Positions 2,479 through 20,431 of a stretch of DNA of 31,304 nucleotides are shown here, one piece after another. The first letter of the stretch is position 1. Each line of letters opens with the position of its first letter. The notes beneath the pieces were generated by a model that was not told the DNA's origin, did no database searches, and was given only the letters and a program-made list of their open reading frames with translations. The DNA lies in NCBI GenBank assembly GCA_964448915.1, contig CAYUXS010000001.1:34940-66243 (forward strand), read 5' to 3'. The stretch is from an uncultured Peptococcaceae bacterium. Its GTDB lineage: Bacteria > Bacillota > Desulfotomaculia > Desulfotomaculales > Desulfocucumaceae. The position numbers and the translations under genes were made by a program.

Positions 2479-3120
2479 TTAATATATTGAAGTAAGTCCT
2501 TCCCGGATAGCATATTTAATTATATCTGCCAGGTTTGACATGCCAAGTTTATTATAAATTTGGCTCCTGTGCACTTCTACTGTTTTTTTGCTGATATTCA
2601 AACAAGCAGCGATTTCACCTACTGTTTTTCCTTCTGCAATTAACTGCAATACTTCCCTTTCTCTTGCCGAGATAACTTCATTGGTTATCCCTGAATTTTT
2701 AATGTTCCCCACAAAATCATTAACAATGGTTTTTGACATATCCAGGCACAGGTAAAATTCATTGTCCATCACGGTATTAACGGCTTGAACCAACTCTTCA
2801 AACGCAGAATTCTTTAAAACATAACCGGATGCTCCTGCCTTAATCATCTTTTCCAATGACCACCTGTCAGAGCAGATAGATAATGAAATTACTTTAATAT
2901 TTGGATTTTCTGCAGTAATTTTCCGGGTAGCTTCAATACCGTTTAAAACCGGCAGGCCGATATCCATTATGATTACATCAGGCTTAAGCTCCCTTGCCAA
3001 GTTAACCGCGCTGACACCATCCTCGGCTTCGGCAATTATTTCTATATCAGGTTGCTTCTCAAGAAGGGAACGAAGGCCATCCCGGATAATTTTATGATCG
3101 TCAACCAATATTATCTTCAT
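2479..3120 (-). CDS. NarL/FixJ (LuxR-HTH) response regulator
   Basis: Receiver domain (LVDDH, DVIIMD, GYVLK) plus LuxR HTH (SAREREVLQLIAEGKT...ISKKTVEVHRSQIYNKL). Confidence 0.95.
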   Translation of the reverse strand: MKIILVDDHKIIRDGLRSLLEKQPDIEIIAEAEDGVSAVNLARELKPDVIIMDIGLPVLNGIEATRKITAENPNIKVISLSICSDRWSLEKMIKAGASGYVLKNSAFEELVQAVNTVMDNEFYLCLDMSKTIVNDFVGNIKNSGITNEVISAREREVLQLIAEGKTVGEIAACLNISKKTVEVHRSQIYNKLGMSNLADIIKYAIREGLTSIY

Positions 3121-3123
3121 AAA

Positions 3124-4488
3124 TCACACCTCGTTACTGATAAATTCTAAAGGGACTTCTATAGTCACAGTTGTGCCGCAACCTTTTTTTGATTCAATTT
3201 TCATATTCCCACCAAGATACTGCACTCCTTCACTGATGCTGAAAAGCCCAAAACCACCGGTTTCATCAAATTTAAAACCCTTTGACTGGGGAGCATTAAA
3301 ACCAATTCCATTATCTTTGACAATAATTCTAAGAATTTTATTTATTTTGCTTATTTTCACCAAAACGTGATCGGCTTTTGAATGTTTTACCACATTGTTG
3401 AGCAGTTCCCTGACTGCCCTTAAAAGCAATATCCGGGCATTTTTATTAACAGATTTGAGATGCCGTTCATTTTCAACTTTTACACGAACTCCATAATCTT
3501 TAGAAAACTGGCGGCAAATCCATTCCAAGGCTTCTGTAAATTCAATATCCGTATGGGTAGGCAGGTTCAACTTGAACGTTAGCCCTTGTATATATTTTAT
3601 AGCTTGATTAACAAAATTTTTTATTTGTTCGATATTATCTTTATCCTCATCTGAAGTTACTGATTCCCCCAATAGGCCCAGCTTTATTTTGACAACTGAC
3701 AAGGACTGCCCTATATAATCGTGTATTTCAGTAGCAATAAGGCTGCGTTCATTTTCTTGGACTTTGGATAACTCGGTACCCAGTGCTCTAAGGTTCTTTT
3801 GATATACACGGGTTTGTCTTTCCCATTCTTTTCTCTCGCTGACTAAAAGAATGCAGATGAATATGCTTATTATTGCAGTTAACAGGCCGGTAAAAACAGA
3901 ATACATCTGTAAATCAGCACTTTTTTGAACATCTTTTTTAGCATGTTCGACAATAAAGCTTTTCCTGCTATCAACAAAATCCTCCAAAATATTTTGAAGC
4001 TGGTTTCTAATCTGGGTATACTCGCCTTTATAAATTAATACCGCTTCTTCCGGTGATGTAGCCGCTTTGCTTATCATTTGGGATTCAAGTTCAAACAGCC
4101 TTTTATTTAATTTGTCAACTTCATTAAAGGTTTGGATACTGCCCGGTTCAATTTCTTTAATCTTTAATATAGAATCATTTATTTTATCATGATATTCATA
4201 ATAAACCTGCAAATCCTTCCGGCTTGAAGGGTTAATGATCAAACCCCTCACTGCATCCGTTAATGTTAAATCCTGAAATTGGATATCTTTTGCCAATATT
4301 AGAATTTCAATATCTTTGTTGGCCAACTGTTCAAGCATGCCAACCGTAAAATTTAAACCGTTAAAAGTTATTAAAATGGACGCAATAAATAAAATAATTA
4401 TTAAGCCTAAACCTAATATATACCTGTTGTTCCGTAACAACCGCAACCCCTCCGATGAAAAAATGCGCCTTTTAGTTATTGTTTTCAC
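3124..4488 (-). CDS. HisKA_3-type membrane sensor histidine kinase
   Basis: Two TM segments around a helical extracytoplasmic domain. H-box EIHDYIGQSL; HATPase motifs ELLNNVVKHS, DNGIGF, GFGL. Confidence 0.92.
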   Translation of the reverse strand: MKTITKRRIFSSEGLRLLRNNRYILGLGLIIILFIASILITFNGLNFTVGMLEQLANKDIEILILAKDIQFQDLTLTDAVRGLIINPSSRKDLQVYYEYHDKINDSILKIKEIEPGSIQTFNEVDKLNKRLFELESQMISKAATSPEEAVLIYKGEYTQIRNQLQNILEDFVDSRKSFIVEHAKKDVQKSADLQMYSVFTGLLTAIISIFICILLVSERKEWERQTRVYQKNLRALGTELSKVQENERSLIATEIHDYIGQSLSVVKIKLGLLGESVTSDEDKDNIEQIKNFVNQAIKYIQGLTFKLNLPTHTDIEFTEALEWICRQFSKDYGVRVKVENERHLKSVNKNARILLLRAVRELLNNVVKHSKADHVLVKISKINKILRIIVKDNGIGFNAPQSKGFKFDETGGFGLFSISEGVQYLGGNMKIESKKGCGTTVTIEVPLEFISNEV

Positions 4489-4543
4489 ATGCCCATTCTT
4501 AGTTTATTATTGAAATCTTAACATAATAAAAGAACTCGATATA

Positions 4544-4602
4544 TAAGGATGATCCTTAGTAAATGCCCCCCAGATCCTTAGTTAAAAGATTTAAAACCCT
4601 TA
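4544..4602. promoter_or_regulatory. Candidate response-regulator operator array
   Basis: Perfect palindrome TAAGGAT-G-ATCCTTA (4544-4558). CCTTA half-sites end at 4558, 4580 and 4602, a 22-bp period. GATCCTTAGT occurs at 4551-4560 and 4573-4582. Confidence 0.55.
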
Positions 4603-4830
4603 TTTTTGCAATTATTATCCTTTATTTTATTCGCAATAACAGCTATAATGGTAATAAGCAAACAATTAGCCAATAAACAACATATTATAATCAAGTAATT
4701 CTTAAATCAATTAACTCTTTTTGGTATTAGGTTAAAAAACTACGGTACATTTTGGATCATCTTCCGAAGTTATTGAAGGCTTACAATCTTATTCAGTTTA
4801 AGTTAATAATAACAAAGGAGTTGATGTCTA

Positions 4831-5034
4831 TTGAATTTTTGGCAAAAAGTATGTATTGTAGTTGGTGTTATTGGAACTGTACTTATTTTTTTAGCGTTTC
4901 CGGTTAAAGTTCAAGTTATCGGGTCAACATATACTCATTTCCCCGCCACATTACTAAGGGCTGTGGCAGTGGCTTCATGTACCGCCGCTTTTACTACCCT
5001 GCTTGGGATTATTCCAAGGAACAATAATATTTAA
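4831..5034 (+). CDS. Small two-helix membrane protein of unknown function (67 aa)
   Basis: AAAGGAG upstream of a TTG start, two hydrophobic stretches, own terminator downstream. Confidence 0.55.
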   Translation: MNFWQKVCIVVGVIGTVLIFLAFPVKVQVIGSTYTHFPATLLRAVAVASCTAAFTTLLGIIPRNNNI

Positions 5035-5057
5035 TTAAATTTTTGAGTATTTGCCGG

Positions 5058-5095
5058 GGAAGCTCCCTGCTTTATTTAGCCGGGGCTTCCTTTTT
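5058..5095 (+). terminator. Intrinsic terminator
   Basis: GGAAGCTCC...GGGGCTTCC followed by TTTTT. Confidence 0.7.
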
Positions 5096-5295
5096 GCTTT
5101 CATCTATTCCAGAAGCGGGTATTAACCAGTTGTAAAGCAAAAAGAAAATATACTAATACTAAAGCAAAAAATAAATAGGTCCTTTTATTATATAAAATAG
5201 TGTCAATTGGTGTTTGAAAAATAAGAATTTTCCCGATACTGAAAAAATAAGGAATTGGGTATAATGAAGCTGTCCAATAATAACACCTTTTTTTT

Positions 5296-5317
5296 AGCCC
5301 GACAGGGCTTTTTTTTT
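5296..5317 (+). terminator. Orphan plus-strand intrinsic terminator
   Basis: AGCCC-GACA-GGGCT followed by a long T run. Confidence 0.7.
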
Positions 5318-5327
5318 GCCAATTAGC

Positions 5328-5368
5328 AAATAAATAACCCCTCCCAATTTAGGAGGGGTTATTTATTT
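5328..5368. terminator. Long hairpin or bidirectional terminator
   Basis: Perfect 17-bp stem AAATAAATAACCCCTCC / GGAGGGGTTATTTATTT with a 7-nt loop. Confidence 0.75.
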
Positions 5369-5684
5369 GGTTTCTTATGAGGTAAGGTATGCTGTTAGGT
5401 ATGGTTAAATTTAAAAAATGAAATCAAGGTAAATTGATCTTTCCAACAATTGCCGCACAATAACACTCTGTTAATAAATAACCATTGCAAGCCTATTAAT
5501 GTAAGGTTTAGATTTTGTATGACTTTATTATGTCTAGCATTATACATATATAATGTCATAATGTCAAGCAAACTGGGATAAAAAAACGATTGCAGTGTTA
5601 GCAAATATTGCATCCCCTGTGCCCTTCAACTTTTCGCAGTATTTGCATAGTATACTGAAGTGTATTTTAAGAGGAGGGTTATTT

Positions 5685-6473
5685 TTGATAAGAGAGATTA
5701 CCATACTGCCCGGTCTTGATAAGAGCGGGAATAAGGAGTCATTTGAGGAAATTACATTATCCCTCGGAGACACAATTTCAATTGTCGGCCCAACAGGAAG
5801 CGGCAAAACCGCATTTATTAATGACATTGAACTGTTGGCCCAAGGAGACACTGTTACAAAACGGACTGTCTTAATAAATGGGCAAAAACCATCTGATGAA
5901 ATGAGAGAAAATCCTTCATCTAAACCTATCGCTATGATTACGCAAAATACTAAATGCTTTGCCGACCTCTCGACAGAAGAATTCCTAAAAATACATGCTC
6001 GTGCACGTGGTATTAAAGATACCGGGATTATCATGGAAACAATCGAACTGGCAAATAAATTTACCGGTGAGGCTATTATGCCTGAGTCAAGGGTAACAGT
6101 CCTTTCCGGAGGGCAGACCCGCTCTCTTTTGGTCGCAGATGCGATTTTAATTGGCTCTTCTCCTATTATTCTCCTTGATGAAATAGAGAATGCCGGCATT
6201 TTTAAACAGGAAGTTATAAAGTTAATACAATCTACAGGCAAAATTGTAATTTTTGTGACTCATGAGCCGGTGATTGCACTTCTGACAAAACAACGAATCA
6301 TCATGAAAAACGGTTCGGTTAAAAAAATAATTTCCCGGAGCGATTCGGAAACCAAAGCTGCCAATAACCTGATAGAACTTGATAAAAATGTTTGTTTAAT
6401 TCGAGAACTTTTAAGGGCTGGCAAGATCATAACACACGAAACAATATCCGGATTCGCTTTGGGAGGGGTGTGA
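5685..6473 (+). CDS. Soluble ABC-type ATPase with no permease partner
   Basis: Walker A GPTGSGKT, Q-loop ITQ, signature LSGGQ, Walker B ILLDE, H-loop VTHE. Likely start is TTG 5685 after GAGGAGG, rather than the track start 5595. Confidence 0.88.
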   Translation: MIREITILPGLDKSGNKESFEEITLSLGDTISIVGPTGSGKTAFINDIELLAQGDTVTKRTVLINGQKPSDEMRENPSSKPIAMITQNTKCFADLSTEEFLKIHARARGIKDTGIIMETIELANKFTGEAIMPESRVTVLSGGQTRSLLVADAILIGSSPIILLDEIENAGIFKQEVIKLIQSTGKIVIFVTHEPVIALLTKQRIIMKNGSVKKIISRSDSETKAANNLIELDKNVCLIRELLRAGKIITHETISGFALGGV

Positions 6474-6475
6474 AT

Positions 6476-7186
6476 ATGAAACTGGTAGTAATTGCAGGGC
6501 CTCCTTCTGCCGGGAAAACAGCCCTAATAAGGCAGGTTGTTAAAGAACTCAAAACAGAGTTTAAAATAGCCTTCCTGAAAATAGATGTTGTTAAAGCCTA
6601 TGAAGATATAGAGTTAAAAAAAGAATTCAATATTTTAACTAAAAAAATATATTCCGGGGATCTATGCCCGGACCATGCCGGGGTAATGATTACGTCTGAT
6701 GCCATTGAATGGGCTGAAGAAAATTTATGCGATTTATTGATTATCGAAAGTGCCGGCCTTTGCCTGCGCTGCTCGCCCTATATTAACCAGGGGCTTGGCA
6801 TTGCAGTATTAAGTTCAATCTCCGGGATTCATGCCCCGGAAAAAATGGGGCCGATGATCAGCCTTGCAGATGTTGTTGTTGTTACAAAAATCGATTTGGT
6901 CAGCCAGGCCGAGCGTGAAGTACTAATTCAAAAAATTAAGGAAACAAACCAAAATGCTATTTTAATAGAAACTAACGCTTTACAGGGAACAGCATTACAA
7001 AGGTTATACAGATTAATCAAAAACTCCGAGGAAATTGATGAGAGTAATCTTTATCTAAAAGGCAACCCGCCTCTGGGTACCTGTACCATATGTATCGGCA
7101 AAAAAGAAATTGGTTGGAAGCATCATTTTGGAGTAGTTCGAAAGTTAGACGGTGATGTGGCAGAATACTTATACCGGGGTGAATAA
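6476..7186 (+). CDS. HypB/UreG/CobW-like (SIMIBI G3E) GTPase, Cys-rich
   Basis: Walker A GPPSAGKT, G3-like ESAG, G4 TKID. Cys motifs LCPDH, CLRC, CTIC. ATG 6476 after GGGAGGGG, 2 nt after the ATPase stop. Confidence 0.85.
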   Translation: MKLVVIAGPPSAGKTALIRQVVKELKTEFKIAFLKIDVVKAYEDIELKKEFNILTKKIYSGDLCPDHAGVMITSDAIEWAEENLCDLLIIESAGLCLRCSPYINQGLGIAVLSSISGIHAPEKMGPMISLADVVVVTKIDLVSQAEREVLIQKIKETNQNAILIETNALQGTALQRLYRLIKNSEEIDESNLYLKGNPPLGTCTICIGKKEIGWKHHFGVVRKLDGDVAEYLYRGE

Positions 7187-7187
7187 G

Positions 7188-7829
7188 ATGTTGACAAATA
7201 CTTGGAACCCTCCGGGGAAAAATTGTGGCTTGTGTGGTGAGAACAGCTGTACTGATTTTATAAATACTGTCAATAGCAACCAAAAAACATATCATGACTG
7301 CCCGTTTTATAATAGCCGTACGATCAAAAAAGACACCCCTCTTATGGAAGCTGTTTACTTGGGTTCAGATGTATTGGGGCATAGTTATGATTTCGTATTG
7401 GCTCCTTTACAAGGAGAAATTTCAGCGAGGAAAATAGTCTTGCCATTTCGATCGGACTTAGTGGAAAAGATGGAGATAAAGAAAGGGGATATTGTTGTAG
7501 GCAGGCCAATGGGAGCGGGCTGTCCTATCCCACACACCTTGCAGGTTATCGAAGCTGACTACATAACGGGGCTTCTTTATACTTGGGTCGTAGGGCCCAA
7601 ATTTTCGAGAGGCAGCGAAGTTAAAGACCTTGTTGCCTACCATATGATTGGTTTTGAGGGAATTGCATCTCGAATTGTTCATGAGCCGGTTTTAGGCAGC
7701 AGGGTTACATTTTTACCGGGTTTTTGTATGATGAATTTAAACCACACCGGCGTAGTAAACATGTCTTTACAAAAAAAATCCGGGCTTCACGTTCGAATAG
7801 AAGACATTCGCATCCTGGCAAAAGCTTAA
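7188..7829 (+). CDS. Fe-S cluster-binding protein of unknown function
   Basis: N-terminal PGKNCGLCGENSC...CP (FeS domain type of RnfB/AcsC), plus PMGAGCP and PGFCM. ATG 7188 lies 1 nt after the GTPase stop. Confidence 0.8.
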   Translation: MLTNTWNPPGKNCGLCGENSCTDFINTVNSNQKTYHDCPFYNSRTIKKDTPLMEAVYLGSDVLGHSYDFVLAPLQGEISARKIVLPFRSDLVEKMEIKKGDIVVGRPMGAGCPIPHTLQVIEADYITGLLYTWVVGPKFSRGSEVKDLVAYHMIGFEGIASRIVHEPVLGSRVTFLPGFCMMNLNHTGVVNMSLQKKSGLHVRIEDIRILAKA

Positions 7830-7912: not shown

Positions 7913-8674
7913 CTACGCCCTGTAGATTTTATTTACAGTAAACCCAGTTAGCCGGGATAGTTGTCTTAATGAGCTTCCCTTTAACTTCTTTGCATACTTT
8001 AAAACTTCTGTCTGAATTCCTGGATCCTCATTTTGCAGTACCGCTAATTCAATTTTATACTTGTCCAACACTAACTGCCTGATCTCTTTGTCGGAAATAG
8101 TTTTCCTTAAAGGGGTCATTTCTAAGCACTGATCATCATTTTCCGCCATATTAAAATCTTTAAACCTTTTTATAGCCTCGTCCCTATCTTCCGCAAACAT
8201 TGCTAAAGCATAGTCTGTATTTACAATCTTTGCTTTTGTCATATATTCTATATAACTACTCCATCTATATGAGGCAATGTTATTAACCAAACCTGCTTTT
8301 AACGGATTCTGATGTATGTATCTTAATACTGTTAAAAAGTAAGTTTCATCTTCTATTGGTTCACTTTTATATCTATCCTGAAACAAGTGCCCCTTTCTGT
8401 TATACTGCCAATTATACCAGTACACATAACTTGCACCTATACGCCTCATGCTATTTGCCAGTTCATCATTTCCTTCCTTCACCAGCAAGTGAACATGATT
8501 GCCCATGAGACAGTAGGCGTATATTTCGAATTCATTCTCTTTCTGATATTTAGCAAGTATATCAATAAATTTTTCATTATCCTCATCATTTACAAATATA
8601 TTTTGCTGGTTTATACCCCTTACCATTACATGGTATATATTAGTTTTACTTTTCTTTCTCGCTATTCTTGGCAA
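7913..8674 (-). mobile_element. REP-associated tyrosine transposase (RAYT)/IS200-like Y1 HUH transposase
   Basis: YHVMVRGINQQNIF, HUH motif MGNHVHLL, GHLFQDRYKS, YIHQNP, WSSY and an HTH-like C-terminal tail. TTG start after GCGGGGTGG. Flanked by inverted REP-like repeats. Confidence 0.9.
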
Positions 8675-8858: not shown

Positions 8859-9964
8859 TTGAGTGCCAAGATACTGGAAGACAGAAAAATTTCTTTGGGT
8901 TCTGAGGGCAAAAACAATCGTAAATATCTCTTACTTGCCTCATACACTTTTTCTGCCTTAATAGCGGTCATCGTTTATTTTACCGGAGGGACCACAAAAG
9001 TATATACAAATTTAATGTACATACCTATTGCCATAGTTGCATCAACAAACGGCAAAAAACAAGGTGTTATACTCGCAGTGGTAAGCGGATTGGCTTTAGG
9101 GCCTTTTATGCCTTTAGATGTGGCGTCAAATATAAGCCAGGACTTTATAAATTGGGTATTGAGGTTATTAATATATTCAACTATTGCATATGTGATTGGT
9201 TTCTTTTCGGAGTATTATAAGCAAGAGTATGAAAATACCATTAAAAAAGATAAAGAGCTAAGTGAAGCACAAATGGCCACTATCTACTCTTTAGTAAAAT
9301 TATCAGAATCCCGGGATTACGAAACAGGTGCACATATTGAGAGGGTAGCTTCGTATTGCAAACTCTTGGCTCATAAACTTCGCGATATACCCAAATACAA
9401 AAATTATATAATGATGACTATGTTGAAAATATGGCCAAGGCCAGTACATTACATGATATCGGCAAAGTAGGCATACCGGATAGTATCTTACATAAACCCG
9501 GCAAACTTACTTCGCAAGAATTCGAGATTATGAAAAACCATACAAATATTGGGGCTAATACTTTACTGGAAGTCAAGAAAAAATATCCGGACAGCAAATT
9601 TTTGGAGCTTGGAATTAATATTACTCTTTATCATCATGAAAAGTGGGATGGCAGTGGATATCCCCATGGGTTACGCGGGGAAAATATTCCATTATCGGCA
9701 AGAATTATGGCTATTGCAGACGCTTATGATGCATTAAGATCAAAGAGGGTTTACAAAGAAGCTTATTCCCATGAAAAAAGCCTGGAAATTATCAAGCAAG
9801 GTAAAGGTACCCATTTCGATCCTGAAATTGTAGATGTTTTTATCGAGAATGAAGCAGAGTTTAACAATATTTTTAATAATTTAGACAGTAGAACAGGAGA
9901 ACAGGATATAACTATAAATCAAAAAAACCCCCTCCTAAAAATTGCAGAGGGAGTTATTAATTAA
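8859..9964 (+). pseudogene. Membrane-anchored HD-GYP domain protein (putative c-di-GMP phosphodiesterase), frameshifted near 9410
   Basis: N-terminal TM domain, then ESRDYETGAHIERV. Restoring one A at ATAAT (9408-9412) gives YINDDYVENMAKASTLHDIGK and joins the two track ORFs. HHEKWDGSGYPHGL motif intact. Confidence 0.85.
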
Positions 9965-10319: not shown

Positions 10320-12128
10320 TTACAAGTAATACTCAAGTATTATTTCCTGCTTCTTTAGCAGTTCACAAACTGCATCTACTGCACCTTCAAAATTATTTAT
10401 GTCATCAATACTGGCATCCGGTTTAAAGTTGCTGAAAGGCGATTCACCAGTATTGATAATTAAAATCTCATTTGGTTGATTTAATAATTTAAGCATTTCA
10501 GCTTCATAATCGTCCAGGTTAAATATTGAAGTAATGAAAATCTGCCCCGAATCAGTAAATATTCTTGCAAGCTCGCCAATCTGCCTTATTTGATGATCTC
10601 TTCCTTCAGTATCAGGTGTAAAATCATAACTTAGTCCATGAACAAGACTTGAAACTCCGAGATAGTACGCCTTATATCTCATCTTGAAAAGTCTTTTTTC
10701 CAGTAACTTTGCTATATCCTGTATAGTATTTTCATATCCAAGGCTGCCGGATGTAATAACTATAAATTTCGATTTATGCCCGTATCCGGCACTTCTTTCA
10801 TCTGCTGAGATCAATCCTTTTTCCCATAAAAATTCCCTGTCTTTGACATGATCAATCAAGGTATTGTCGTCATCTGGAACGCTTTCTAAAATAATTCCCC
10901 CACCTGATATTTCATAGTTATCAACAATTACAAACCTTCCAGTTTGCTCAATTTCGGAAACGGCGTCAAAAGCAATGGGCTTTGCAGTTTCCAATATGCA
11001 CTCCGCAACATCATGTCTTTCCACCTGATCCTTATAAGTTTCAATATTTAACCCTGCCGCATCAATTATATTTAATATTTCGATAAGCTTTACTCGAACT
11101 CTCGCCGTACCTATTTTAAGTTTATAATTTTTATTTTTTATTAAGGGTGCCTTGCCAACCCAAAAGATATTTGCTTTAAAGCGGGAGCTTACAATTGGCG
11201 GCTTTTCATCCGCTTTAACCATAAGCTCTCCAGGTTTAATGTAGATTTGGGTTTCCAGCGTGACTCCTATTGCTTCGCCGGCATATGCAGTATCTCTGGG
11301 TTTAACATTAAACCTTTCAATACTCTTAATGATGCTTCTCTTATTTGAGGGTAAAAAAACAACCTCATCCCCTGTATTGATCACACCACTTAAAACCGTA
11401 CCTGCTACAATCCGTCTATCATCCCCTTCCTTGGTAAACTTGTAGATATCCTGAACAGGCATACGAACCGGAAGCTCTATATTTTTCTTTTTGTTAGTAA
11501 AACCATCTAATTGTTCTAAAACAGTTGGGCCGTTATACCATTTTAGATTGCCGGATCTGCTTGCAATATTATCTCCACCAAAAGCACTGATAGGTATAAA
11601 ATTAAGCGGCCTGATATTCACTTTATCCAAAAATCCAGCAAACTCATTGCGTATGGAATTAAATACACTCTCCTGAAAGCCCACAAGATCCATTTTATTA
11701 ACCAGTACAACAACCTGCTTAATTCCCAGCATGGAAACTATATGGCCATGTCTTTTGGAATTTTCCTTTATCCCTTCCTTGGCGTCTATAACCAAAAGTG
11801 CAGCCTCGGCTCTTGATGCTCCCGTAACCATATTTTTTAAAAATTCTATATGTCCGGGTGCATCAATAATAATGTAATCTCGTTTTTTAGTATTAAAAAA
11901 GCATCTCGCAGTATCAATGGTAATCCCTTGTGCTTGCTCGTCCTTTAACGCATCAAGAAGAAATGCATATTCAAAGGGTTTCGAATTTTTACGGCAATAT
12001 TCTTTTACCAATTCCAATTTTCCCTCAGGGAGAGAACCGGTATCCGCCAGAAGCCTGCCTATTACAGTACTTTTGCCGTGGTCCACATGCCCGACAATAA
12101 CAATGTTCATCTGTTCCCTGGTTTCCAT
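10320..12128 (-). CDS. cysN: Sulfate adenylyltransferase large subunit (EF-Tu-like GTPase) with a degenerate C-terminal APS-kinase-like domain
   Basis: [29 protein letters not shown]. The C-terminal domain lacks a P-loop. Confidence 0.93.
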
Positions 12129-12130
12129 AT

Positions 12131-13012
12131 TTACATGTAACCCCCCCTGCGCAGGGTCTCAAGACCTCCACCATCATCCTTATCCTGGGCACGGCCGGAC
12201 CTTTCAGCTATATTTGAAAACTTGCCGCTTTTTAGCTCTTCAATAATGTCGCTTACATTCTTTGCATCTGAATCTACTGGAAAAGTGCATGGATAACAAC
12301 CTAAAGACCTGTAACGTTTACCATTGCCCTGGTCAAAGTAAAGAGAAGTTACAGGTATATTCTCTCTTTCTATATACTCCCAGATATTTAATTCAGTCCA
12401 ATCTAACAATGGGTGTATCCTGATATGAGTTCCGGGAGCGAAATCCGTCTTGAACTGGTTCCAAAATTCAGGTGGCTGATCCCCGACATCCCAGTCATTT
12501 TCCTTATCTCTTGGAGAAAAATACCTCTCTTTTGAACGGCTTCCCTCCTCATCTGCCCGTACCCCGACAATAACACCGGTATATTTTTCTCTACTTGTAT
12601 CCGGTACATATTTACCAGTTTCATGATCCAAAACATACCGGTTCCATTTTCCTGAAAGGGTATGTTTTAAGGCCTCAGTTTTTAGCGCTTGACAGCAAGT
12701 AAGCCGGTCGACTTTCCCCTCAGGAAAGGTTTCCTTCTTTAACAAAGCATCGCTATTTTCGCCATATATCATGGTAAGATTCCACTTCAGTGCAAGTTCA
12801 TCTCTATATTTAATCATTTCAGGAATTTTATAGTGGGTATCAATGTGTACAAGGGGTATCGGTACATGTCCAAAAAAAGCTTTTCTTGCCAGCCATAGCA
12901 GTACAGTACTGTCTTTACCGATAGACCAGAGCATGCAGATATTTTTAAATTCCCGGTAGGCTTCTCTTAATATATAAACGCTTTGTGCTTCCAACTTATC
13001 AAGATGATTCAT
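12131..13012 (-). CDS. cysD: Sulfate adenylyltransferase subunit 2
   Basis: [11 protein letters not shown]-loop, [34 protein letters not shown]. Likely start ATG 13012 after GGAGGA. Confidence 0.95.
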
Positions 13013-13031
13013 ATTAAATCCTCCAAGGTCT

Positions 13032-13838
13032 TCAGCTTTTGATATGGCAAGATGGAAGTTCATAATCTATCAACTCATTAATTACGGGTTGATTACCACA
13101 AACAGGGCAATTTGTATTTCTATTAACTTTAATATCTCTAAATTTCATCGATAGTGCATCGTATGTCAGTAACCGTCCAACCAAAAGTTCCCCTATACCA
13201 AGCAGATACTTGAGTACTTCTGTTGCCTGGATTAAACCGATTGTTCCAGCCAGGACACCCAACACACCTGCTTGTGAACATGTAGGTACAGCACCTGCAG
13301 GTGGGGGTTCGCCAAATACACAGCGAAAACAAGGCCCCTGGCCCGGGATAATAGTAAAAGCCTGTCCGGAGAATTTTAAAATTCCTCCATGAACAAAAGG
13401 TATTCCGGACATAACACAAGCGTCATTTGTTACGAAACGGGTTGAATAATTATCAGTACCATCCACCACTATGTCATAATCCTTTATGATTTTCATAATA
13501 TTGCCAGCCATAAGTCTTTCTTTATAAGTAACAATATTGCAGTCAGGATTTAGATTTTTAAGCTTTTCTGCTGCCGACTCAACTTTCGGCCGGCCAATAT
13601 CTTTAGTGCTGTGGAGTATTTGTCTTTGCAGGTTACTCAAATCCACTACATCGTCATCTATTATCCCCAGTGTACCAACGCCTGCAGCAGCCAGGTAATA
13701 AGCTACTGGCGAACCAAGACCTCCTGTACCGATAATCAGAACACGTCCATCACAGATTTTTTTCTGCCCTTCTCCCCCGACTTCCGGCAGGATAATGTGT
13801 CTACTGTAACGAATTACCTGTTCTTCATTAAAGTTCAC
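13032..13838 (-). CDS. ThiF/MoeB/HesA (E1-like) sulfur-carrier adenylyltransferase, HcyF-like, no rhodanese domain
   Basis: [34 protein letters not shown], Zn motifs CFRC and CPVC, active-site [10 protein letters not shown]. Confidence 0.93.
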
Positions 13839-14800
13839 TGCCTTACACCCCTTCTCTTTAAGTCCAGGCGAAAATACGGCTCCATACTAAAGTACCTTTC
13901 ACCCGAATCTGGGAAAATGGTAACAACACGCTTTCCGGGACCCAACTCCCCGGCCACCTTCAAAGATGCAGAAAGGGCGGCCCCCGACGAAATCCCTGCG
14001 GAGATTCCTTGTTTCCTGGCTAATTCCCGGGAAAGAATATATGCTTCACTGTCATCTACACTAATAATCCTGTCTATTACCTTAAGATTTAAGGTTTCAG
14101 GTATAAAGCCGGCGCCAATTCCCTGAATTCTATGCGGCCCCGGCTTTCCGCCGGACAATACCGGCGACTGGGCAGGTTCAACACCAATGATGCGAACCCC
14201 TGGAATTTCTTTTTTTAAAACCTCTCCAACCCCACTGATGGTACCCCCGCTTCCAATGCCTGCCACAAAAGCATCTATTTTCCCGCCGGTTTGTTCCAGT
14301 ATTTCTTTAGCTGTGGTAAGCTGGTGTGCTTCCGGATTTGCAGGGTTGCTAAACTGCCTTGGCATATAATAATCAGGATTTTCGGCAAGGATTTTTTCTG
14401 CTTTTAAGACGGATTCTCTCATCCCGGCGGGATTTGGAATAAGAACTAGGCTGGCCCCGTAAGCTTCCAAAATCAACTTCCGTTCACTGCTCATTGTCTC
14501 GGGCATTACTAGGATTAGTCGATAACCCCTGGCGGCTGAAACCATCGCCAGTCCTATTCCGGTATTGCCGCTAGTCGCTTCAATAATAACCCCGCCGGGT
14601 TTAAGGAAACCTGATTTTTCGGCATTTTTCACCATGTGTAAAGCAATCCGATCCTTTATACTTCCACCGGGGTTAAACATCTCCAATTTAGCAAAAACGG
14701 ATGCGGAGTCTTTATTAGATACTGATATTTCTACCATGGGGGTATTACCTATTAAACTTGTTATATCACCATCAATTTTATTGACTAACTTGCCAGTCAT
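13835..14800 (-). CDS. cysK: Cysteine synthase (O-acetylserine sulfhydrylase, CysK-like)
   Basis: PLP lysine motif NPGGSIKDRIA, EATSGNTGIGLA, GIGSGGT, HRIQGIGAG. Likely start ATG 14800 after GGAGGT. Confidence 0.92.
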   Translation of the reverse strand: MTGKLVNKIDGDITSLIGNTPMVEISVSNKDSASVFAKLEMFNPGGSIKDRIALHMVKNAEKSGFLKPGGVIIEATSGNTGIGLAMVSAARGYRLILVMPETMSSERKLILEAYGASLVLIPNPAGMRESVLKAEKILAENPDYYMPRQFSNPANPEAHQLTTAKEILEQTGGKIDAFVAGIGSGGTISGVGEVLKKEIPGVRIIGVEPAQSPVLSGGKPGPHRIQGIGAGFIPETLNLKVIDRIISVDDSEAYILSRELARKQGISAGISSGAALSASLKVAGELGPGKRVVTIFPDSGERYFSMEPYFRLDLKRRGVRQ

Positions 14801-14804
14801 GAAA

Positions 14805-15008
14805 TTAATGACCTCCACCCATAAAAAAAAGTATATCGATGGAGTCTCCGTCTTTAATAATTGTTGTCTGGAAAGAATCCTTTTCCACAATCGAACCATT
14901 TAAACTTATATTGATCATTTCCGGGCTAAACCCATATTCTGTGATCAGTTCCAAAAGCGTATATTCTTTATTTAGCACTTCCTTGTCTCCATTAAGATAG
15001 ATTTCCAT
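14805..15008 (-). CDS. thiS: ThiS/MoaD-family sulfur carrier protein (HcyS-like) ending ...FFMGGGH
   Basis: 67 aa beta-grasp pattern (MEIYLNG...LNGSIV...IKDGDSIDIL) with a Gly-rich C-terminus and one residue after the GG. Confidence 0.9.
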   Translation of the reverse strand: MEIYLNGDKEVLNKEYTLLELITEYGFSPEMINISLNGSIVEKDSFQTTIIKDGDSIDILFFMGGGH

Positions 15009-15010
15009 GT

Positions 15011-15250
15011 TTACTCCCCCTTTTCAATCAATAACTTGTACTTTTCTCCAAGTTTTTCTACCCTAATTATTTTATGCCCCTCATCTTTAACACTGCGGGG
15101 AACATTTTTAATCGGCTCCCCGGAATTAAGTATTACTTCAAGAACTTCCCCTTTTTTCATCTGCTCCAACTTTAGATTGGTTTTTACAAAAGTAATTGGG
15201 CAGACATCTGAAGTAATATCCAGTGTGGAACTTATTTTAATTTCATTCAC
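15011..15250 (-). CDS. TusA/SirA-family sulfurtransferase
   Basis: LDITSDVCPITFVKT (LD..G..CP-type motif), GEVLEVIL, NVPRSV. Confidence 0.9.
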   Translation of the reverse strand: MNEIKISSTLDITSDVCPITFVKTNLKLEQMKKGEVLEVILNSGEPIKNVPRSVKDEGHKIIRVEKLGEKYKLLIEKGE

Positions 15251-15284
15251 AGCAATCGCCCCATTTTTTTAGAACTTTTTTATA

Positions 15285-16133
15285 TCAGATTTCCATCTTT
15301 TCTTTAAAAGCATCCACACCTACCCTGGCAATGGTGTCAGCAATCCGCTCACCTTGGGTCGATAATTTTTCATAAGCCATTAGGACCTTATTAACAACCT
15401 CAATTATTTCATTTTGTTGTACGAATTTTATTAACACCTGACCTAAGCATGGCTTTCGGCCAATTTTGCCCCCTGCATACAGCAGATATCCCCTTCTTTT
15501 TTCTTTCCATGCATCAACCGGACAGGAAAATATGCAGTTTCCTTCCATAAGGCATTTAGACTCATCTCTTTCCGGTTTACCCTTAATCATCGTTATTGCC
15601 TTGCTGGGGCAGACTTTTTCACAAATAGCACAACCTATACATTTCTCCTCATCCAGAATAGGCTCAATTACCCCGAGTAAGCCAATATCGTTTTCCTGGG
15701 GCTTGGCGCAGGAATTTGGGCAACCCGAAACTGCTATTTTAGTCTTCATGGGTACCTGGCGTCCAAAAAAAGCTTTATCCAATTCTATGGCTGCTTCTCT
15801 CGTATTCATGAGACCGGAGGAACAAACCTCAATCCCCGGGCAAGCAACCACCGACCTGATACGAGGGCCGCATGTGCCGGTATGAAGACCCAGCTTCTTT
15901 ATTTCCTCACTCATTTTTTCATAATCGTTAATGTTTACCCAGGGAATTTCGGTTCCTTGCCTGGTTGTAACATGAACGTATCCCTTACCATATTTTTCAG
16001 CAAGATCAGCCAGTTGTCTCAAATTCTCACTGGTTAAATTCCCTGCAAGACTTCGAAAACGAACTATAAAAGTGTCTTTTTGTTTTTGCTTTAAAAAACC
16101 GCCCTTTTTTAAATCGTCATAGTTAATAGCCAT
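15285..16133 (-). CDS. Small siroheme sulfite/nitrite reductase with an inserted ferredoxin domain (AsrC/Sir-like)
   Basis: HVTTRQ, siroheme-[4Fe-4S] ligands CPGIEVC and GCPNSC, ferredoxin motifs CIGCAICEKVCP and CLMEGNCIFSCP. Confidence 0.9.
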   Translation of the reverse strand: MAINYDDLKKGGFLKQKQKDTFIVRFRSLAGNLTSENLRQLADLAEKYGKGYVHVTTRQGTEIPWVNINDYEKMSEEIKKLGLHTGTCGPRIRSVVACPGIEVCSSGLMNTREAAIELDKAFFGRQVPMKTKIAVSGCPNSCAKPQENDIGLLGVIEPILDEEKCIGCAICEKVCPSKAITMIKGKPERDESKCLMEGNCIFSCPVDAWKEKRRGYLLYAGGKIGRKPCLGQVLIKFVQQNEIIEVVNKVLMAYEKLSTQGERIADTIARVGVDAFKEKMEI

Positions 16134-16151
16134 ATCTTTACTCCTAAATAT

Positions 16152-16490
16152 TTAATCATTTTTAATTTTCATAGAGTTGTGGACCTTTATCGAAAATTCT
16201 TCTTTCTTCCCGTCAAATCTATTTAACTTCCATACAACCGTCTCACCAATAGCCCGGGCGGTAAGGGTAGATCCCCTACCGCCGATTTGTATTGGCAAAA
16301 ACATTTCAATAGCCTGGCGAGGACATTCTTTTATACAAGCTGCACAATCCCAGCAATCATTGGGGTCTCTGATGCTGCATTTCCCGTTTGCACCTTTGTA
16401 CAATAAATCCCCGGGGCATACTGCAACACACCTTGCTTCTTTCATCTTCCCGCAGCCGTTGCACAGGGTACTATTGATCCTTACAGCCAT
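16152..16490 (-). CDS. aprB: APS reductase beta-subunit-like 2x[4Fe-4S] ferredoxin
   Basis: CNGC...CVAVCP and CWDCAACIKECP. Directly downstream of the AprA-like gene. Confidence 0.8.
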   Translation of the reverse strand: MAVRINSTLCNGCGKMKEARCVAVCPGDLLYKGANGKCSIRDPNDCWDCAACIKECPRQAIEMFLPIQIGGRGSTLTARAIGETVVWKLNRFDGKKEEFSIKVHNSMKIKND

Positions 16491-16537
16491 ACCACTACAC
16501 CATCCTGACTTTCTTGCTAAAAGTCCTACCTAATTCG

Positions 16538-18220
16538 TCACATTCCTTTGTTTAAAGGCTTTTCCAAAACATTAAAGGTATCTGTTTTGGAGTCATACAG
16601 TGAATTAACAAAAACCAACCATCTTTGATCATCCCTTCCGGGATAATCAACCCTCTCCTGGTAACTCAACCATCTGGTTTCTTTCCTATATAAAAGGTGT
16701 TCTACAACAGCTCTGGCAACTAAAACCCGGTCAATAACTTCATGGGCTTTAACCAGTTCGTAAATATCAGAAGAAAAAATACTTAAATTAATATCTTGAT
16801 CCAGCTTTTTAAGCAAATCCTTTGCTATTAAAAGCTTACTGGCACAAGTTTCATAGTTTGTGGTAATTCCCCCGGCATATTCGTCCATAACCTTTTGTAA
16901 TCTTTCTTCATATTCATCCGGCGAAGGGCCACTCAACCTGCCTAGAGGTGTATAAACCCTGCCGTACTCATCTTTAATACTTTCCTCTCCGACTTCCAAT
17001 AACTTTGGAACACCATCCAAATAATTCAATGCTGCTGTCGCCGCTATTTCCGCCTCTGCAAAACATCCGGTTACATATTTCTTAGGTGCGCCTCCTGCCA
17101 CGTCGCCGGCTGCAAACAGCCCTTGGATACTGGTCTGCCGTGAAACATCCACCCAATACCCCGCTTGACCATGCCCTCCCACTATATAGGGTTCAGAACC
17201 ACACAATTCAAGAAGCATTTCATTTGGTTCAACACCCTCATCAGCCCACTTTAAAACCATTCCAGGAGACATGTTAAGATAAGCTTCTTTAAGTTTTTCG
17301 TTAACTGATTGAGGTATATGAGTCATATCAAGGTAACAGGGGCCCTTGCCGGCTTTGTTCTCTTGGATAGTGGCGTACAACCTGGAAGGAGTTGTTTGAT
17401 CCTGGTACTTTTTTAGGTACTCTTCCCCCAGTGCGTTGATCTGTCTTGCCTTAAATCCTTGTACCACTGTACCGGTTGGTGAAATAACATCCTTTATCCT
17501 AAGAGCAATAAATCTCATCTCAAAAGTGGTCATTTCAGCCCCGGCCCTAAGTCCCATTGCAAAACCCGTTCCTACATTAAATGGGCAGTACCACATTTTG
17601 TGCCCGGCTGAACCGGCATTGTTGGGTTTATATATTCCAGAAGCCCCTCCAGTTGTGCAAATTACAGCCTTGGCTAAAATAACATAAAATTTGTTATCCC
17701 TGGAAGAGAAAGCATATACCCCAGCTGCCCGCCCTTTGTCTACGATATAATTGGTAGCTACAGTCCTGTTTAAAACCTTTGCGCCTGATTTTTCAACAAC
17801 AGATGCCAATATTGGCTTAATATGTTCACCGGTGATTTCAATGCTTCTTTTACCCCTGGGTTTATATCCACCCGACTCGTCTTTAACAATAGGCAGACCC
17901 CACGATTCTATCTTTTCTGTGACTTTATTTAATCTCTGCCCAATGGTCAGGACCAAATCTTCCCGGATTAGGCCTGCCGAATCTTTCTTTACGTATTCAA
18001 GGTAACTTTCTGGGGTTTCCCCCGGATTTAAGTAAGCATTAATAGCATTTACCCCCGCTGCCAAGCACCCGCTTCTTTTTATATTTGCCTTCTCAACTAT
18101 AATCACCTCAGTTTGAGGGCTGATTTCTTTAATAGTGGCCGCAGCATAGCATCCTGCAGTCCCTCCTCCAACAATAACAATGTCGGTAAAAAGTCTTTCT
18201 ATTTCGATTCGATCATGCAA
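16538..18220 (-). CDS. aprA: Adenylylsulfate reductase alpha subunit-like flavoprotein (AprA, SdhA/FrdA superfamily)
   Basis: FAD motif VGGGTAGC, KRSGCLAAG, WYCPFNVG, EMRFIALR, GLFAAGD, RKETRW. Genomic context of sulfate activation genes. Confidence 0.85.
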   Translation of the reverse strand: MHDRIEIERLFTDIVIVGGGTAGCYAAATIKEISPQTEVIIVEKANIKRSGCLAAGVNAINAYLNPGETPESYLEYVKKDSAGLIREDLVLTIGQRLNKVTEKIESWGLPIVKDESGGYKPRGKRSIEITGEHIKPILASVVEKSGAKVLNRTVATNYIVDKGRAAGVYAFSSRDNKFYVILAKAVICTTGGASGIYKPNNAGSAGHKMWYCPFNVGTGFAMGLRAGAEMTTFEMRFIALRIKDVISPTGTVVQGFKARQINALGEEYLKKYQDQTTPSRLYATIQENKAGKGPCYLDMTHIPQSVNEKLKEAYLNMSPGMVLKWADEGVEPNEMLLELCGSEPYIVGGHGQAGYWVDVSRQTSIQGLFAAGDVAGGAPKKYVTGCFAEAEIAATAALNYLDGVPKLLEVGEESIKDEYGRVYTPLGRLSGPSPDEYEERLQKVMDEYAGGITTNYETCASKLLIAKDLLKKLDQDINLSIFSSDIYELVKAHEVIDRVLVARAVVEHLLYRKETRWLSYQERVDYPGRDDQRWLVFVNSLYDSKTDTFNVLEKPLNKGM

Positions 18221-18263
18221 ATACGTATCACCCCTATCCCAACCAACCGGTTATATAATCAAG

Positions 18264-18896
18264 TCAGCTTTTTATTTGATCTATAATTCCTTTTTGCTGT
18301 AAGAAACCAATAACCTTATCAACTGATTCTTCAAGGTTTTCATTTTGAGTATCCAACACAATTTCAGGTTCCAAAGGTTCCTCATAAGGAGATGAAATCC
18401 CGGTAAACTCCTTTATCTCCCCGGCCCTGGCCTTATGGTACAAGCCTTTGACATCTCTTTTTTCACATTCATGCAACGGGCATTTCACAAATACCTCAAT
18501 GAAATCTCCTTTACCCAGTAAACTCCTGGCCATGTCTCTATCTGATCTAAAAGGCGAAATAAAAGCTGTAATGGTGATTATCCCTGTATCAGCGAATAAT
18601 TTCGCCACTTCACTGATACGCCTTATGTTTTCTTTCCTGTCCTCAGATGAGAAGCCAAGATTTTTGTTAAGGCCAAGCCGGATATTATCACCATCCAAAA
18701 CATAAACCAAATAGCCATTTTCAAAGAGTCTTTTTTCCAGTTCTACGGCTATAGTGGACTTCCCGGAGCCGGAAAGGCCTGTAAACCAGATCACCACGCC
18801 TTTTTGCCCTAATAATCTTTCCCTGTCTTGTTTTGTGATGTTTCTTTCATGCCGGACAATATTCGTTGCTTTTTGCACATTGAACCATCTATGCAT
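18264..18896 (-). CDS. cysC: Adenylyl-sulfate kinase
   Basis: WFTGLSGSGKST, LDGDNIRLGL, ENIRR, RDVKGLY, FTGISSPYEEP. Start is probably ATG 18896 or GTG 18878. Confidence 0.95.
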   Translation of the reverse strand: MHRWFNVQKATNIVRHERNITKQDRERLLGQKGVVIWFTGLSGSGKSTIAVELEKRLFENGYLVYVLDGDNIRLGLNKNLGFSSEDRKENIRRISEVAKLFADTGIITITAFISPFRSDRDMARSLLGKGDFIEVFVKCPLHECEKRDVKGLYHKARAGEIKEFTGISSPYEEPLEPEIVLDTQNENLEESVDKVIGFLQQKGIIDQIKS

Positions 18897-19674
18897 TGTT
18901 ATCCAGTCCCCAACGCAATCGTATTTTACTCTCCAACTTTCCAAACATAAGTTTGTCGATTATCAGGCCAATGGAAATTATTATTATCATGACTCCAACC
19001 ACTTGATTCATGTCATGCAGATCACGTCCTATCAGCAAGGCATAGCCTAAACCGTCTTTTGGTGATAAAAGCTCACCTGCCATTAGTGCGCGCCAGGCAA
19101 AGGACCATCCCTGCTGCATACCTGTTATTATTGACGGTAGGGCTGCCGGGATAACTACAGTGGTATAGGCCTTAAGTCCTTTTGCCCCCATGGTTTTGGC
19201 AACCCTCATATACAGTGGTGGAACATTTTTTATTCCAGAAATAACTGCTGTAGAAATTGAGAAGACAGAACCTATGGCAACAACAAAAATAATTGAATCT
19301 TCTCCAATACCAAACCAGAGAATGGCCAGCGGCAGCCAGCAAATACTGGGCAGTGCCTGCAAGCCCAGGAGTAGGGGTCTTAATGTATCATCAAGATAAC
19401 GAATTCTAATTATTGCCAAGCCTAAAATTAAACCCGACAAAAGTGAAATTATGTAGCCGGTGGCAACTCTTTTGATACTCACAGCTATTGCTATTGAATA
19501 AGATGTGTCCTTAAAACCCACCAAGAGATTACTAAATACACCCAGGGGTGATGGCAGGAGATATTCCGGCCAAATTTGGAGTCTAAATACCATCTCCCAT
19601 ATTGCTATAAGGACTAGGTAAAAAAGAATCTTTTTGCAAAGACCACTGGCTGTCGAATTCACTTTTAGCGACAT
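18889..19674 (-). CDS. ABC transporter permease (SsuC/TauC/NitT type)
   Basis: LLPSP, LQALPSICWLPLAILWFG, EAA-like region AKTMGA...VVIPAALP, WRALMAGEL. Confidence 0.92.
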   Translation of the reverse strand: MSLKVNSTASGLCKKILFYLVLIAIWEMVFRLQIWPEYLLPSPLGVFSNLLVGFKDTSYSIAIAVSIKRVATGYIISLLSGLILGLAIIRIRYLDDTLRPLLLGLQALPSICWLPLAILWFGIGEDSIIFVVAIGSVFSISTAVISGIKNVPPLYMRVAKTMGAKGLKAYTTVVIPAALPSIITGMQQGWSFAWRALMAGELLSPKDGLGYALLIGRDLHDMNQVVGVMIIIISIGLIIDKLMFGKLESKIRLRWGLDNNA

Positions 19675-20419: not shown

Positions 20420-20431
20420 ATTAACACTTCC

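Follow-up and report, generated by a model that had tools for sequence, protein, structure and literature searches.

The three-gene locus and its conservation

The stretch of DNA analysed here (the window, 31,304 nucleotides of contig CAYUXS010000001.1 from an uncultured Peptococcaceae bacterium) carries three consecutive genes, hereafter the trio, encoding an ABC-type ATPase, a GTPase of the G3E superfamily and a COG2000-type Fe-S protein. The same three genes were found in the same order in about 160 independent loci, an arrangement far beyond chance, and several independent lines of genomic context link them to sulfur mobilisation. The trio may be an unrecognised machine that builds or donates metal-sulfur centres. 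Its genes and the signals preceding them are:

5646..5657, + strand: conserved upstream motif CATAGTATACTG (family pattern CATA-N2-5-T[TA]nAC[TA]G)
5672..5676, + strand: Shine-Dalgarno sequence GGAGG, read from the sequence, 8 nucleotides before the TTG start of the ATPase gene
5685..6473, + strand: ABC-type ATPase gene (262 amino acids; PF00005), start assigned from homologue N-termini
6476..7186, + strand: G3E-superfamily GTPase gene (236 amino acids; PF02492), ATG at 6476
7188..7829, + strand: COG2000-type Fe-S protein gene (213 amino acids; PF04060), ATG at 7188

The three genes are co-directional and lie in open reading frames spanning 5595-6473, 6392-7186 and 7152-7829, all on the + strand. 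The ATPase gene was taken to start with the TTG at 5685 because the N-termini of its homologues read MI[KR]EITILPG. Only 2 nucleotides separate the ATPase and GTPase genes and 1 nucleotide the GTPase and Fe-S protein genes, with no membrane protein inside the module, which bears out the layout described in an earlier inspection of the DNA letters and open reading frames (the sequence-only reading). In two related loci (L088 and L084) stop and start codons of genes of the trio operon overlap.

The clade of the window copy (the window clade) comprises Firmicutes and Methanomicrobiales and was analysed in 80 genome loci; where enough upstream sequence was available, the GTPase gene was in place in 79 of 80 and the ATPase gene in 73 of 76. 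Its carriers are Pelotomaculum, Desulfotomaculaceae, Thermincola, Dethiobacteria, Heliobacteria, Hydrogenispora, Phosphitispora, one member of the Smithellaceae and five Methanomicrobiales. A sister clade, represented by 80 metagenome loci, has the ATPase gene in 41/41 and the GTPase gene in 57/60, the three misses corresponding to truncated contigs; Thermoguttaceae, Phycisphaerae and Deltaproteobacteria are the names obtained for it, with almost no other taxonomy. The order is also kept in 4 of 4 loci of other, divergent clades. Identity between window and sister clades is 48%, 54% and 32% for the three proteins, which have therefore co-diverged as a unit. The sequence-only reading had made its case depend on synteny, on the ATPase not pairing with a permease and on the trio not belonging to a characterised operon; the counts given above, the lack of a recurrent permease beside the ATPase gene in the loci of any clade, and the failure of any curated family or characterised operon to match the trio all turned out in its favour. 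The trio is thus a real, ancient and tightly conserved module. The window copy, from a Pelotomaculum-like Firmicute of anaerobic sludge, is typical of the family and stands alone, the trio also being a stand-alone operon in Heliomicrobium and Hydrogenispora. Some irregular loci were seen: L031 and L074 have the GTPase and Fe-S protein genes with no ATPase gene detectable upstream, and L073, probably decaying, has the ATPase gene and an N-terminally truncated Fe-S protein gene with no GTPase gene.

The family of the third protein yielded 612 close matches, all named only "Fe-S cluster protein", and forms 132 clusters at 50% identity in a set of 1.84 billion proteins. A pattern scan gave 114 matches in a set of 185,579 species, and over 1,000 further proteins were retrieved with a profile built from more distant relatives within the third-protein family.

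With respect to expression signals, the family pattern of the upstream motif was present 37-45 nucleotides 5' of the ATPase start codon in 20 of 73 window-clade loci, when shuffled sequences would be expected to give 0.8. The motif is probably a promoter -10 region or an operator. A search for riboswitches or leader RNAs with Rfam at gathering thresholds gave no match in the window, and in 15 related loci the sole match was a tRNA.

A single-domain ABC ATPase

Conservation was measured over 122 homologues of the ATPase, 136 of the GTPase and 166 of the Fe-S protein, most motifs being kept in at least 97% of them. None of the three proteins passes the cut-off of any curated NCBIfam model, and sequence searches against the PDB agree with this. 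The ATPase matches PF00005 (ABC_tran) at 51.7 bits, for a cut-off of 25. The Walker A motif (GPTGSGKT), Q-loop, LSGGQ signature, Walker B motif (ILLDE) and H-loop (VTHE) are all present and invariant, so that the complete catalytic equipment noticed in the sequence-only reading is confirmed. The protein has a single nucleotide-binding domain (NBD); its D-loop region (DEIENAGI) is both unusual and invariant, and some 45 additional amino acids extend its C-terminus. Its best NCBIfam matches are assorted importer NBDs, at around 50 bits against cut-offs above 240, and it shares 27% identity with the NBD of the importer encoded in the window itself.

Three known identities were considered and rejected. 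A transporter NBD does not fit with the absence of a conserved membrane-protein neighbour and with the GTPase gene following in 73/76, 41/41 and 4/4 loci; no permease recurs beside the ATPase gene in about 120 loci. With SufC/SmsC, BLASTP against E. coli SufC aligned only 15 residues around Walker A (E = 0.006), and sufC is neither among the top 25 NCBIfam matches nor among PDB matches at E <= 1e-8. As for component A2 of MCR activation, the protein has one NBD in 262 amino acids rather than two in tandem, and its carriers are mostly bacteria.

A G3E GTPase with a HypB/UreG-type metal site

The second protein matches PF02492 (cobW/HypB/UreG) at 56.8 bits, with a cut-off of 20.7, and the alignment of homologues shows conserved G motifs GPPSAGKT, ESAG and TKID (G4). 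The sequence-only reading had drawn attention to CPDH (C64-H67), CLRC (C96, C99) and CTIC (C203, C206), and each of them is indeed at least 97% conserved in the homologues. There is in addition an invariant C-terminal tail, C203-x2-C206...W214..H217 followed by RGE, and the invariant residues include five Cys and two His. When aligned to Methanocaldococcus jannaschii HypB (2hf8), C64/H67 and C99 fall on the Cys-His...Cys ligands of HypB. Since these ligand positions are kept, the protein is a predicted metal-binding member of the G3E GTPases that forms a subfamily of its own; the HypB/UreG-like character noted in the sequence-only reading holds, with the HypB/UreG-type site retained.

Assignment to a characterised subfamily was rejected in each case. 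With HypB (TIGR00073) the score is 68.3 bits (cut-off 121.2), and the recurrent neighbours inspected included neither hyp nor hydrogenase genes; UreG (TIGR00101) gives 44.8 against 204.2, the motif is CPDH instead of CPH and no urease genes were seen nearby; and in place of the GCxCC of COG0523/CobW/ZigA the protein has ESAGLCLRCSP, with no CobW_C match and 20.6 bits to ZigA against 600. Compared with the characterised G3E systems (HypB for hydrogenase, UreG for urease, MeaB for mutase and CobW/COG0523), the trio GTPase belongs to the same Pfam family, has Cys and His at the HypB/UreG positions and is encoded next to its presumed client. It differs from them in falling under every subfamily cut-off, in lacking the N-terminal CxxCGC of HypB and the GCxCC of COG0523, in having its own invariant C-terminal CxxC...W..H tail, and in being always accompanied by the ABC ATPase and the COG2000 protein and never, in the loci seen here, by hydrogenase or urease genes.

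The COG2000-type Fe-S protein

The only Pfam match of the third protein is PF04060 (31.9 bits, cut-off 23), which covers an N-terminal [4Fe-4S] domain with ligands C13, C16, C21 and C38-P39, the four Cys being invariant in the 166 homologues; GAGCP (C112) and GFCM (C180) are also conserved. All these elements (the CxxCxxxxC...CP domain, GAGCP and GFCM) had been picked out in the sequence-only reading and remain valid in the family. Across clades, the invariant residues of the C-terminal domain are C112, H116, C180, H186, R81, R106, R141, R172 and R203, to which D61, D68, D147, Y151, N191 and E205 have to be added. The name COG2000 was taken from a recent work in methanogens (PLoS Genet 2025, PMC12068725), where the ATPase, a Ni-binding GTPase and a COG2000 Fe-S protein (Fig. 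2B) are almost certainly the same trio, since they appear beside MMP16 as in loci L081, L082, L084, L170 and L175.

A first AlphaFold2 model based on 24 close homologues was unstable, with a pLDDT of 80 in one of five models, whereas 72 sequences from two clades gave a pLDDT of 89.9 and values of 88-90 in all five models. The model consists of an N-terminal helical cluster domain, a low-confidence flexible linker (around residues 42-58) and a beta-rich C-terminal domain. With Foldseek, 37 residues of the cluster domain match locally the cluster domain of CFeSP (probability 0.98, root-mean-square deviation 1.2 A), the local matches being 2ycl, 9fzy and 4djd (probability 0.94-0.98, 1.2-1.5 A). 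No relative of the beta domain was found in the PDB in two Foldseek searches, the best E values being 0.27 with the first model and 0.12 with the second (TM <0.25). A sequence-profile search of the PDB retrieved only CFeSP N-termini, and NCBIfam matches it only through its 40-residue cluster domain. A relation to SufB was discarded (hhalign probability 0.2), as was an IscU/NifU/SufU-type scaffold, given PF04060 as the only Pfam match and the outcome of the PDB profile search. In sum, the GTPase represents a new G3E subfamily and the ATPase a new family of soluble ABC proteins, and the third protein contributes a domain for which no structural relative has been solved.

Association of the trio with sulfur metabolism

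The sequence-only reading had suspected a connection with sulfur metabolism, and this turned out to be real and much stronger than that reading could show, with an in-operon NifS-type desulfurase, a CymR-like Rrf2 regulator, and recurrent CysK, CysE, MetY and COG1900/coenzyme M (CoM) genes. In the sister clade, a class-V aminotransferase of 390-400 amino acids is encoded between the GTPase and Fe-S protein genes in 43 of 57 loci, and after the Fe-S protein gene in two more. It is a type I cysteine desulfurase, with 478-482 bits to NifS (TIGR03402), around 390 to IscS, and an SSGSACS loop; its gene often overlaps the start codon of the Fe-S protein gene. Extra conserved Cys are present in the sister-clade Fe-S protein (SCGCP..HC and WC). 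Directly upstream of the trio, 16 of 37 sister-clade loci have a gene for an Rrf2 regulator that lacks cysteine and scores best with CymR and then with IscR. An inverted repeat, ATCCTAnTAA-N3-5-TATAGGAT (of the form ATCCTA...TAGGAT), lies in the spacer between the Rrf2 and ATPase genes, 20-50 nucleotides before the ATPase start, in L088, L091, L114, L121, L133, L140, L150 and others; all of these loci carry the Cys-less Rrf2, of which the repeat is likely the operator.

Sulfur genes also recur at the flanks of the trio in both clades, in varied arrangements: CysK in 27 loci, CysE in 9, a MetY-like gene in 12 and a gene for a ComA-like phosphosulfolactate synthase in 14, this last one located directly upstream and on the same strand in 8 Firmicute loci. 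All five Methanomicrobiales loci run on into further genes after the trio, with overlapping stop and start codons in L084. These encode a COG1900 protein with a ferredoxin domain (PF01837, MMP16/ComF-like), a ThrC/cysteate-synthase-like PALP enzyme and a ComDE-like thiamine pyrophosphate enzyme, the latter two adjoining the trio in 4 of the 4 Methanomicrobiales loci with enough downstream sequence. The COG1900d-ferredoxin (MMP16/ComF-like) gene adjoins the trio in three divergent clades, being also found in the P0125 clade (L170/L171) and in a bacterial-looking clade (L175), where a ThrC-like gene precedes the ATPase gene. In L170/L171, an archaeal-looking contig (GCA_014859735.1), the trio and the MMP16-like gene are near genes for Thi4, which in archaea is a sulfide-dependent thiazole synthase, NadA, a class-V aminotransferase and an HMA P-type ATPase. 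The sequence-only reading had proposed to look for co-occurrence with hydrogenase, CODH or lar genes: no recurrent hydrogenase, CODH, urease or lar genes were found among the conserved neighbour clusters inspected, and a LarE-like gene accompanies the trio in no more than two related loci (L018 and L073).

The proximity of the trio to MMP16 agrees with an independent observation, since the colocalisation of both has been reported in six methanogen orders (PMC12068725). Only colocalisation is recorded in that work, where the trio appears beside CoM genes in a figure whose legend states that its "role remains unknown"; its supplements contain no match for HypB, CobW or COG2000. The window copy differs from the methanogen trio in being bacterial, stand-alone and devoid of CoM genes. 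In our literature searches no functional study was found on this domain combination, on a G3E GTPase with a desulfurase or on a new Fe-S system of this kind, the term COG2000 did not appear in relevant literature beyond that report, and no published description was found of the bacterial distribution or of the clade with the desulfurase and the CymR-like regulator. With a single mention in a figure legend and no functional study, the trio has therefore been noticed but is uncharacterised. The claim that it was undescribed thus has to be qualified by that mention in 2025, while the part concerning the absence of a matching curated family or characterised operon stands.

Proposed function and alternative explanations

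A tentative explanation, to which we give somewhat less than even weight, is that the proteins of the trio assemble into a single soluble complex, which builds or passes on a metal-sulfur centre for sulfur-incorporating metabolism. The gene unit, motifs, domains and genomic associations are direct observations, and from them we infer that the proteins form a complex, which metal it handles, which way transfer runs and which clients it serves. In favour of this explanation are the strict co-inheritance, translational coupling and co-divergence of the three genes, the metal-ligand residues of the GTPase, the [4Fe-4S] domain and invariant Cys2His2 set of the Fe-S protein, and the sulfur context described above. 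The GTPase would bind a metal (likely Fe, possibly Ni or Zn) at its Cys-Pro-Asp-His/Cys-x2-Cys site, and GTP hydrolysis would deliver it to a putative Cys112/His116/Cys180/His186 site in the beta domain of the COG2000 protein, taken as the metal acceptor because no other candidate client accompanies the GTPase universally. In the sister clade, sulfur would reach the same site in the form of a persulfide supplied by the NifS-type desulfurase, whose gene directly precedes that of the COG2000 protein; the order of desulfurase and acceptor mirrors that of iscS-iscU, nifS-nifU and sufS-sufE/U, and the COG2000 protein is for this reason marked as the sulfur acceptor. In sulfide-rich anaerobes such as the window organism and methanogens, sulfur would arrive directly as sulfide, and the operon of the strict-anaerobe (window) clade lacks the desulfurase. 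The [4Fe-4S] domain tethered at the N-terminus may provide electrons for persulfide reduction or cluster coupling, and a dimer of the ABC ATPase could act as an ATP-driven clamp that opens and closes the assembly and releases the product to its clients. The COG1900 aldehyde sulfurtransferases (ComF/MMP16 and L-ASST) are candidate clients, perhaps along with further enzymes that form thiols or carry Fe-S centres. That the trio pairs repeatedly with COG1900d/ComF, CysK, MetY and CysE suggests that the product serves sulfur incorporation and not a Ni enzyme. More specifically, the trio, together with the NifS-type desulfurase where sulfide is scarce, could be a sulfur-mobilisation machine of anaerobes, with a labile metal-sulfur centre, assembled on a fold that has no solved relative, as the physiological sulfur donor for the COG1900 sulfurtransferases (ComF/MMP16 for CoM, L-ASST for homocysteine) and perhaps for other thiolations; this is possible, though we consider it doubtful in this precise form.

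Several known systems offer partial parallels. The SMS and SUF systems are desulfurase-less and desulfurase-bearing, respectively, a difference parallel to that between the window and sister clades. Like SUF and SMS (SufS with SufBC2D; SmsCB), the trio has a soluble ABC-type ATPase and a Cys-bearing acceptor, a desulfurase found in one clade but missing from strict anaerobes able to use sulfide, and some loci under predicted control by an Rrf2-family regulator. Unlike them, its ATPase is not SufC, its acceptor is unrelated to SufB/D, and it has an additional G3E GTPase and a built-in [4Fe-4S] relay domain. With IscS-IscU, NifS-NifU, MIS and the cymR-iscS arrangement, the sister clade shares a type I desulfurase that directly precedes a putative acceptor, as well as a CymR-like Rrf2 at the head of the operon and cysE/cysK nearby. 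In this case the differences reside in an acceptor with no IscU, NifU or SufU domain, in the two interposed NTPases and in the absence of the desulfurase from the window-clade operon.

Certain data weigh against the proposed metal-sulfur assembly. The ATPase is not SufC-like and the Fe-S protein is not related to SufB, IscU or NifU, so that the analogy with SUF is functional only. Two Cys and two His are universal in the beta domain, few for a cluster scaffold unless it is a dimer, and its five invariant Arg are more suggestive of an enzyme active site for an anionic substrate. Flanking genes are mostly unconserved in the window clade, where no neighbour is found in more than 12 of 79 loci, and most bacterial loci encode no client. 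Finally, no contig covers the trio in the only metatranscriptome of the source sample, which is tiny. The sequence-only reading had already envisaged a dedicated cofactor assembly machine: the gene unit, the metal site of the GTPase and the link to sulfur are retained, that to the sulfate operon is lost, and assembly itself is deduced from context.

Such a set of invariant Arg, together with Asp, Tyr and Asn residues, could instead form a substrate pocket, and the COG2000 protein would then be a client itself, a redox metalloenzyme or an ATP-coupled low-potential electron donor with its putative Cys2His2 site loaded by the G3E chaperone. We consider this rather unlikely. In its favour, genes for G3E proteins normally adjoin that of their client and no candidate other than COG2000 is co-inherited throughout, and a CFeSP/RnfB-type cluster domain on a flexible linker fits an electron relay. 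Gating or energising electron transfer would fall to the ABC ATPase, as it does to component A2 for MCR, to RACo and to the activases, and the complex might drive the reductive step of thiol formation (aldehyde + S + 2 e-) or persulfide reduction; enzymes that need two electrons for thiolation (MMP16-like) do adjoin the trio. The resemblance to MCR activation and RACo-type activators lies in a soluble ATPase combined with a CFeSP/RnfB-type low-potential Fe-S carrier, but A2 has two NBDs as opposed to one, there are no McrC/Mmp partners and the trio is present in many non-methanogens. Moreover, MMP16-type proteins have their own ferredoxin insert (PMC12068725), also seen in the loci analysed here, no known reductase fold was detected for the beta domain with Foldseek against the PDB, and the desulfurase gene directly before the COG2000 gene is left unexplained. 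This desulfurase, along with Rrf2, the NTPases, a Cys-rich acceptor and the nearby CysE/CysK, as in isc, nif and cymR-iscS, would find an explanation if the trio were a general stand-alone Fe-S biogenesis system next to NIF, ISC, SUF, MIS and SMS, serving the whole Fe-S proteome, and the extra Cys of the sister-clade protein resemble scaffold sites. A general role is nevertheless improbable in view of the patchy distribution (the 114 matches and 132 clusters mentioned above), of an Rrf2 protein that has no cluster-ligating Cys and is closer to CymR than to IscR, and of the repeated pairing with one enzyme family, COG1900d, which argues for a dedicated role.

A function specific for CoM, for example making sulfite or thiol sulfur for its synthesis, would account for the translational coupling with MMP16-like, cysteate-synthase-like and ComDE-like genes in Methanomicrobiales, for the colocalisation in six methanogen orders and for the ComA-like gene directly upstream in 8 Firmicute loci. 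However, most carriers are bacteria without a CoM context (Pelotomaculum, Heliobacteria, Dethiobacteria, Hydrogenispora, Planctomycetota and Deltaproteobacteria), and in CoM-free bacteria the trio is found alone or with desulfurase, CysK or CysE genes, which makes this explanation quite improbable. The more conventional options, an insertion chaperone set for Ni, Co or Zn acting on hydrogenase, CODH/ACS, urease or Lar, or an orphan NBD whose permease is encoded elsewhere, are largely refuted by synteny, and we give them very little credit. It is true that HypB and UreG are the best curated matches of the GTPase, that automatic annotation calls it a Ni-binding GTPase (PMC12068725), that a LarE gene is present in the window and that the nearest relatives of the ATPase are importer NBDs. 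But the GTPase falls far short of the cut-offs for HypB and UreG, the recurrent neighbour clusters inspected include no client of this type, LarE being limited to two loci, and the ATPase gene is always followed by that of the GTPase and has no conserved permease at its side in the loci mentioned.

If true, the role as sulfur donor would answer which is the in vivo source of sulfur for CoM and homocysteine synthesis by COG1900 enzymes. As sulfur sources for COG1900 reactions, only MA1715 and free sulfide are discussed in the methanogen study (PMC12068725). The trio also bears on how Fe and sulfide are delivered in anaerobic Fe-S biogenesis. Since a putative metal chaperone, ATP clamp and electron relay and, in one clade, a desulfurase are encoded beside those enzymes, both questions can be addressed by reconstitution with three or four proteins. 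With the trio, the G3E GTPases would gain a fifth functional subfamily and the soluble ABC ATPases a new family, along with a fold for which no relative has been solved. The supply of coenzyme M is a control point for methanogenesis.

Surroundings of the trio in the window

A sulfur-assimilation cluster on the minus strand (10320-23196), which also includes CysD, starts 2.5 kb downstream of the trio, with a LarE gene beside it. These and the remaining features of the window are:

2479-4488, - strand: HisKA_3 kinase and LuxR/GerE response regulator, divergent to the trio
4831-5034, + strand: small hydrophobic open reading frame (67 amino acids), under metatranscriptome contig 4788-4961
5055-5069, 5296-5309 and 5327-5369, + strand: three terminator-like hairpins after the 67-amino-acid frame
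7913-8674, - strand: IS200-like Y1 transposase (253 amino acids; PF01797), directly after the trio
8859-9470 and 9431-9964, + strand: HD-GYP-type protein in two overlapping frames (N-terminal membrane part with no Pfam match, and HD_5)
10320-12128, - strand: CysN-like GTPase with only a partial APS-kinase domain (sulfur cluster)
13032-13838, - strand: MoeB/UbaA-like E1 (sulfur cluster; part of the protein-thiocarboxylate route)
13835-14899, - strand: CysK (sulfur cluster; listed with the thiocarboxylate-route parts)
15285-16133, - strand: small AsrC/Dsr-like sulfite reductase (sulfur cluster)
16538-18220, - strand: AprA (sulfur cluster)
18264-18944, - strand: separate APS kinase (sulfur cluster)
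18889-21109, - strand: NMT1-type ABC importer (sulfur cluster)
21524-22753, - strand: O-acetylhomoserine sulfhydrylase, MetY (sulfur cluster; listed with the thiocarboxylate-route parts)
22789-23196, - strand: JAB/desampylase-like protease (sulfur cluster; part of the thiocarboxylate route)
23419-24249, - strand: LarE (TIGR00268, 346 bits, cut-off 150)
26804-29233: HMA P-type ATPase

The sequence-only reading had given weight to the vicinity of the sulfur operon and of LarE. Both are present in the window, but their adjacency is not conserved: that of CysD/N, AprA, sulfite reductase (Sir) and APS kinase was not repeated in the other loci examined, and that of LarE is limited to the two loci already mentioned. 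No LarB or LarC was noticed in the window, and the sulfur cluster holds parts of a protein-thiocarboxylate route.

The IS200-like transposase gene parts the trio from the rest of the region, and the split of the HD-GYP-type gene that follows could be due to a frameshift or an assembly error. On the other side, an untranslated gap of about 300 nucleotides lies between the region of the 67-amino-acid frame and the trio, and no metatranscriptome contig other than that at 4788-4961 maps to the stretch. In L086, which belongs to a distant clade, a HisKA_3 kinase and a LuxR/GerE regulator 37% identical to that of the window are encoded co-directionally with the trio (3796-5390, + strand); this pair was seen in no other loci, and its presence in both may therefore be a coincidence.

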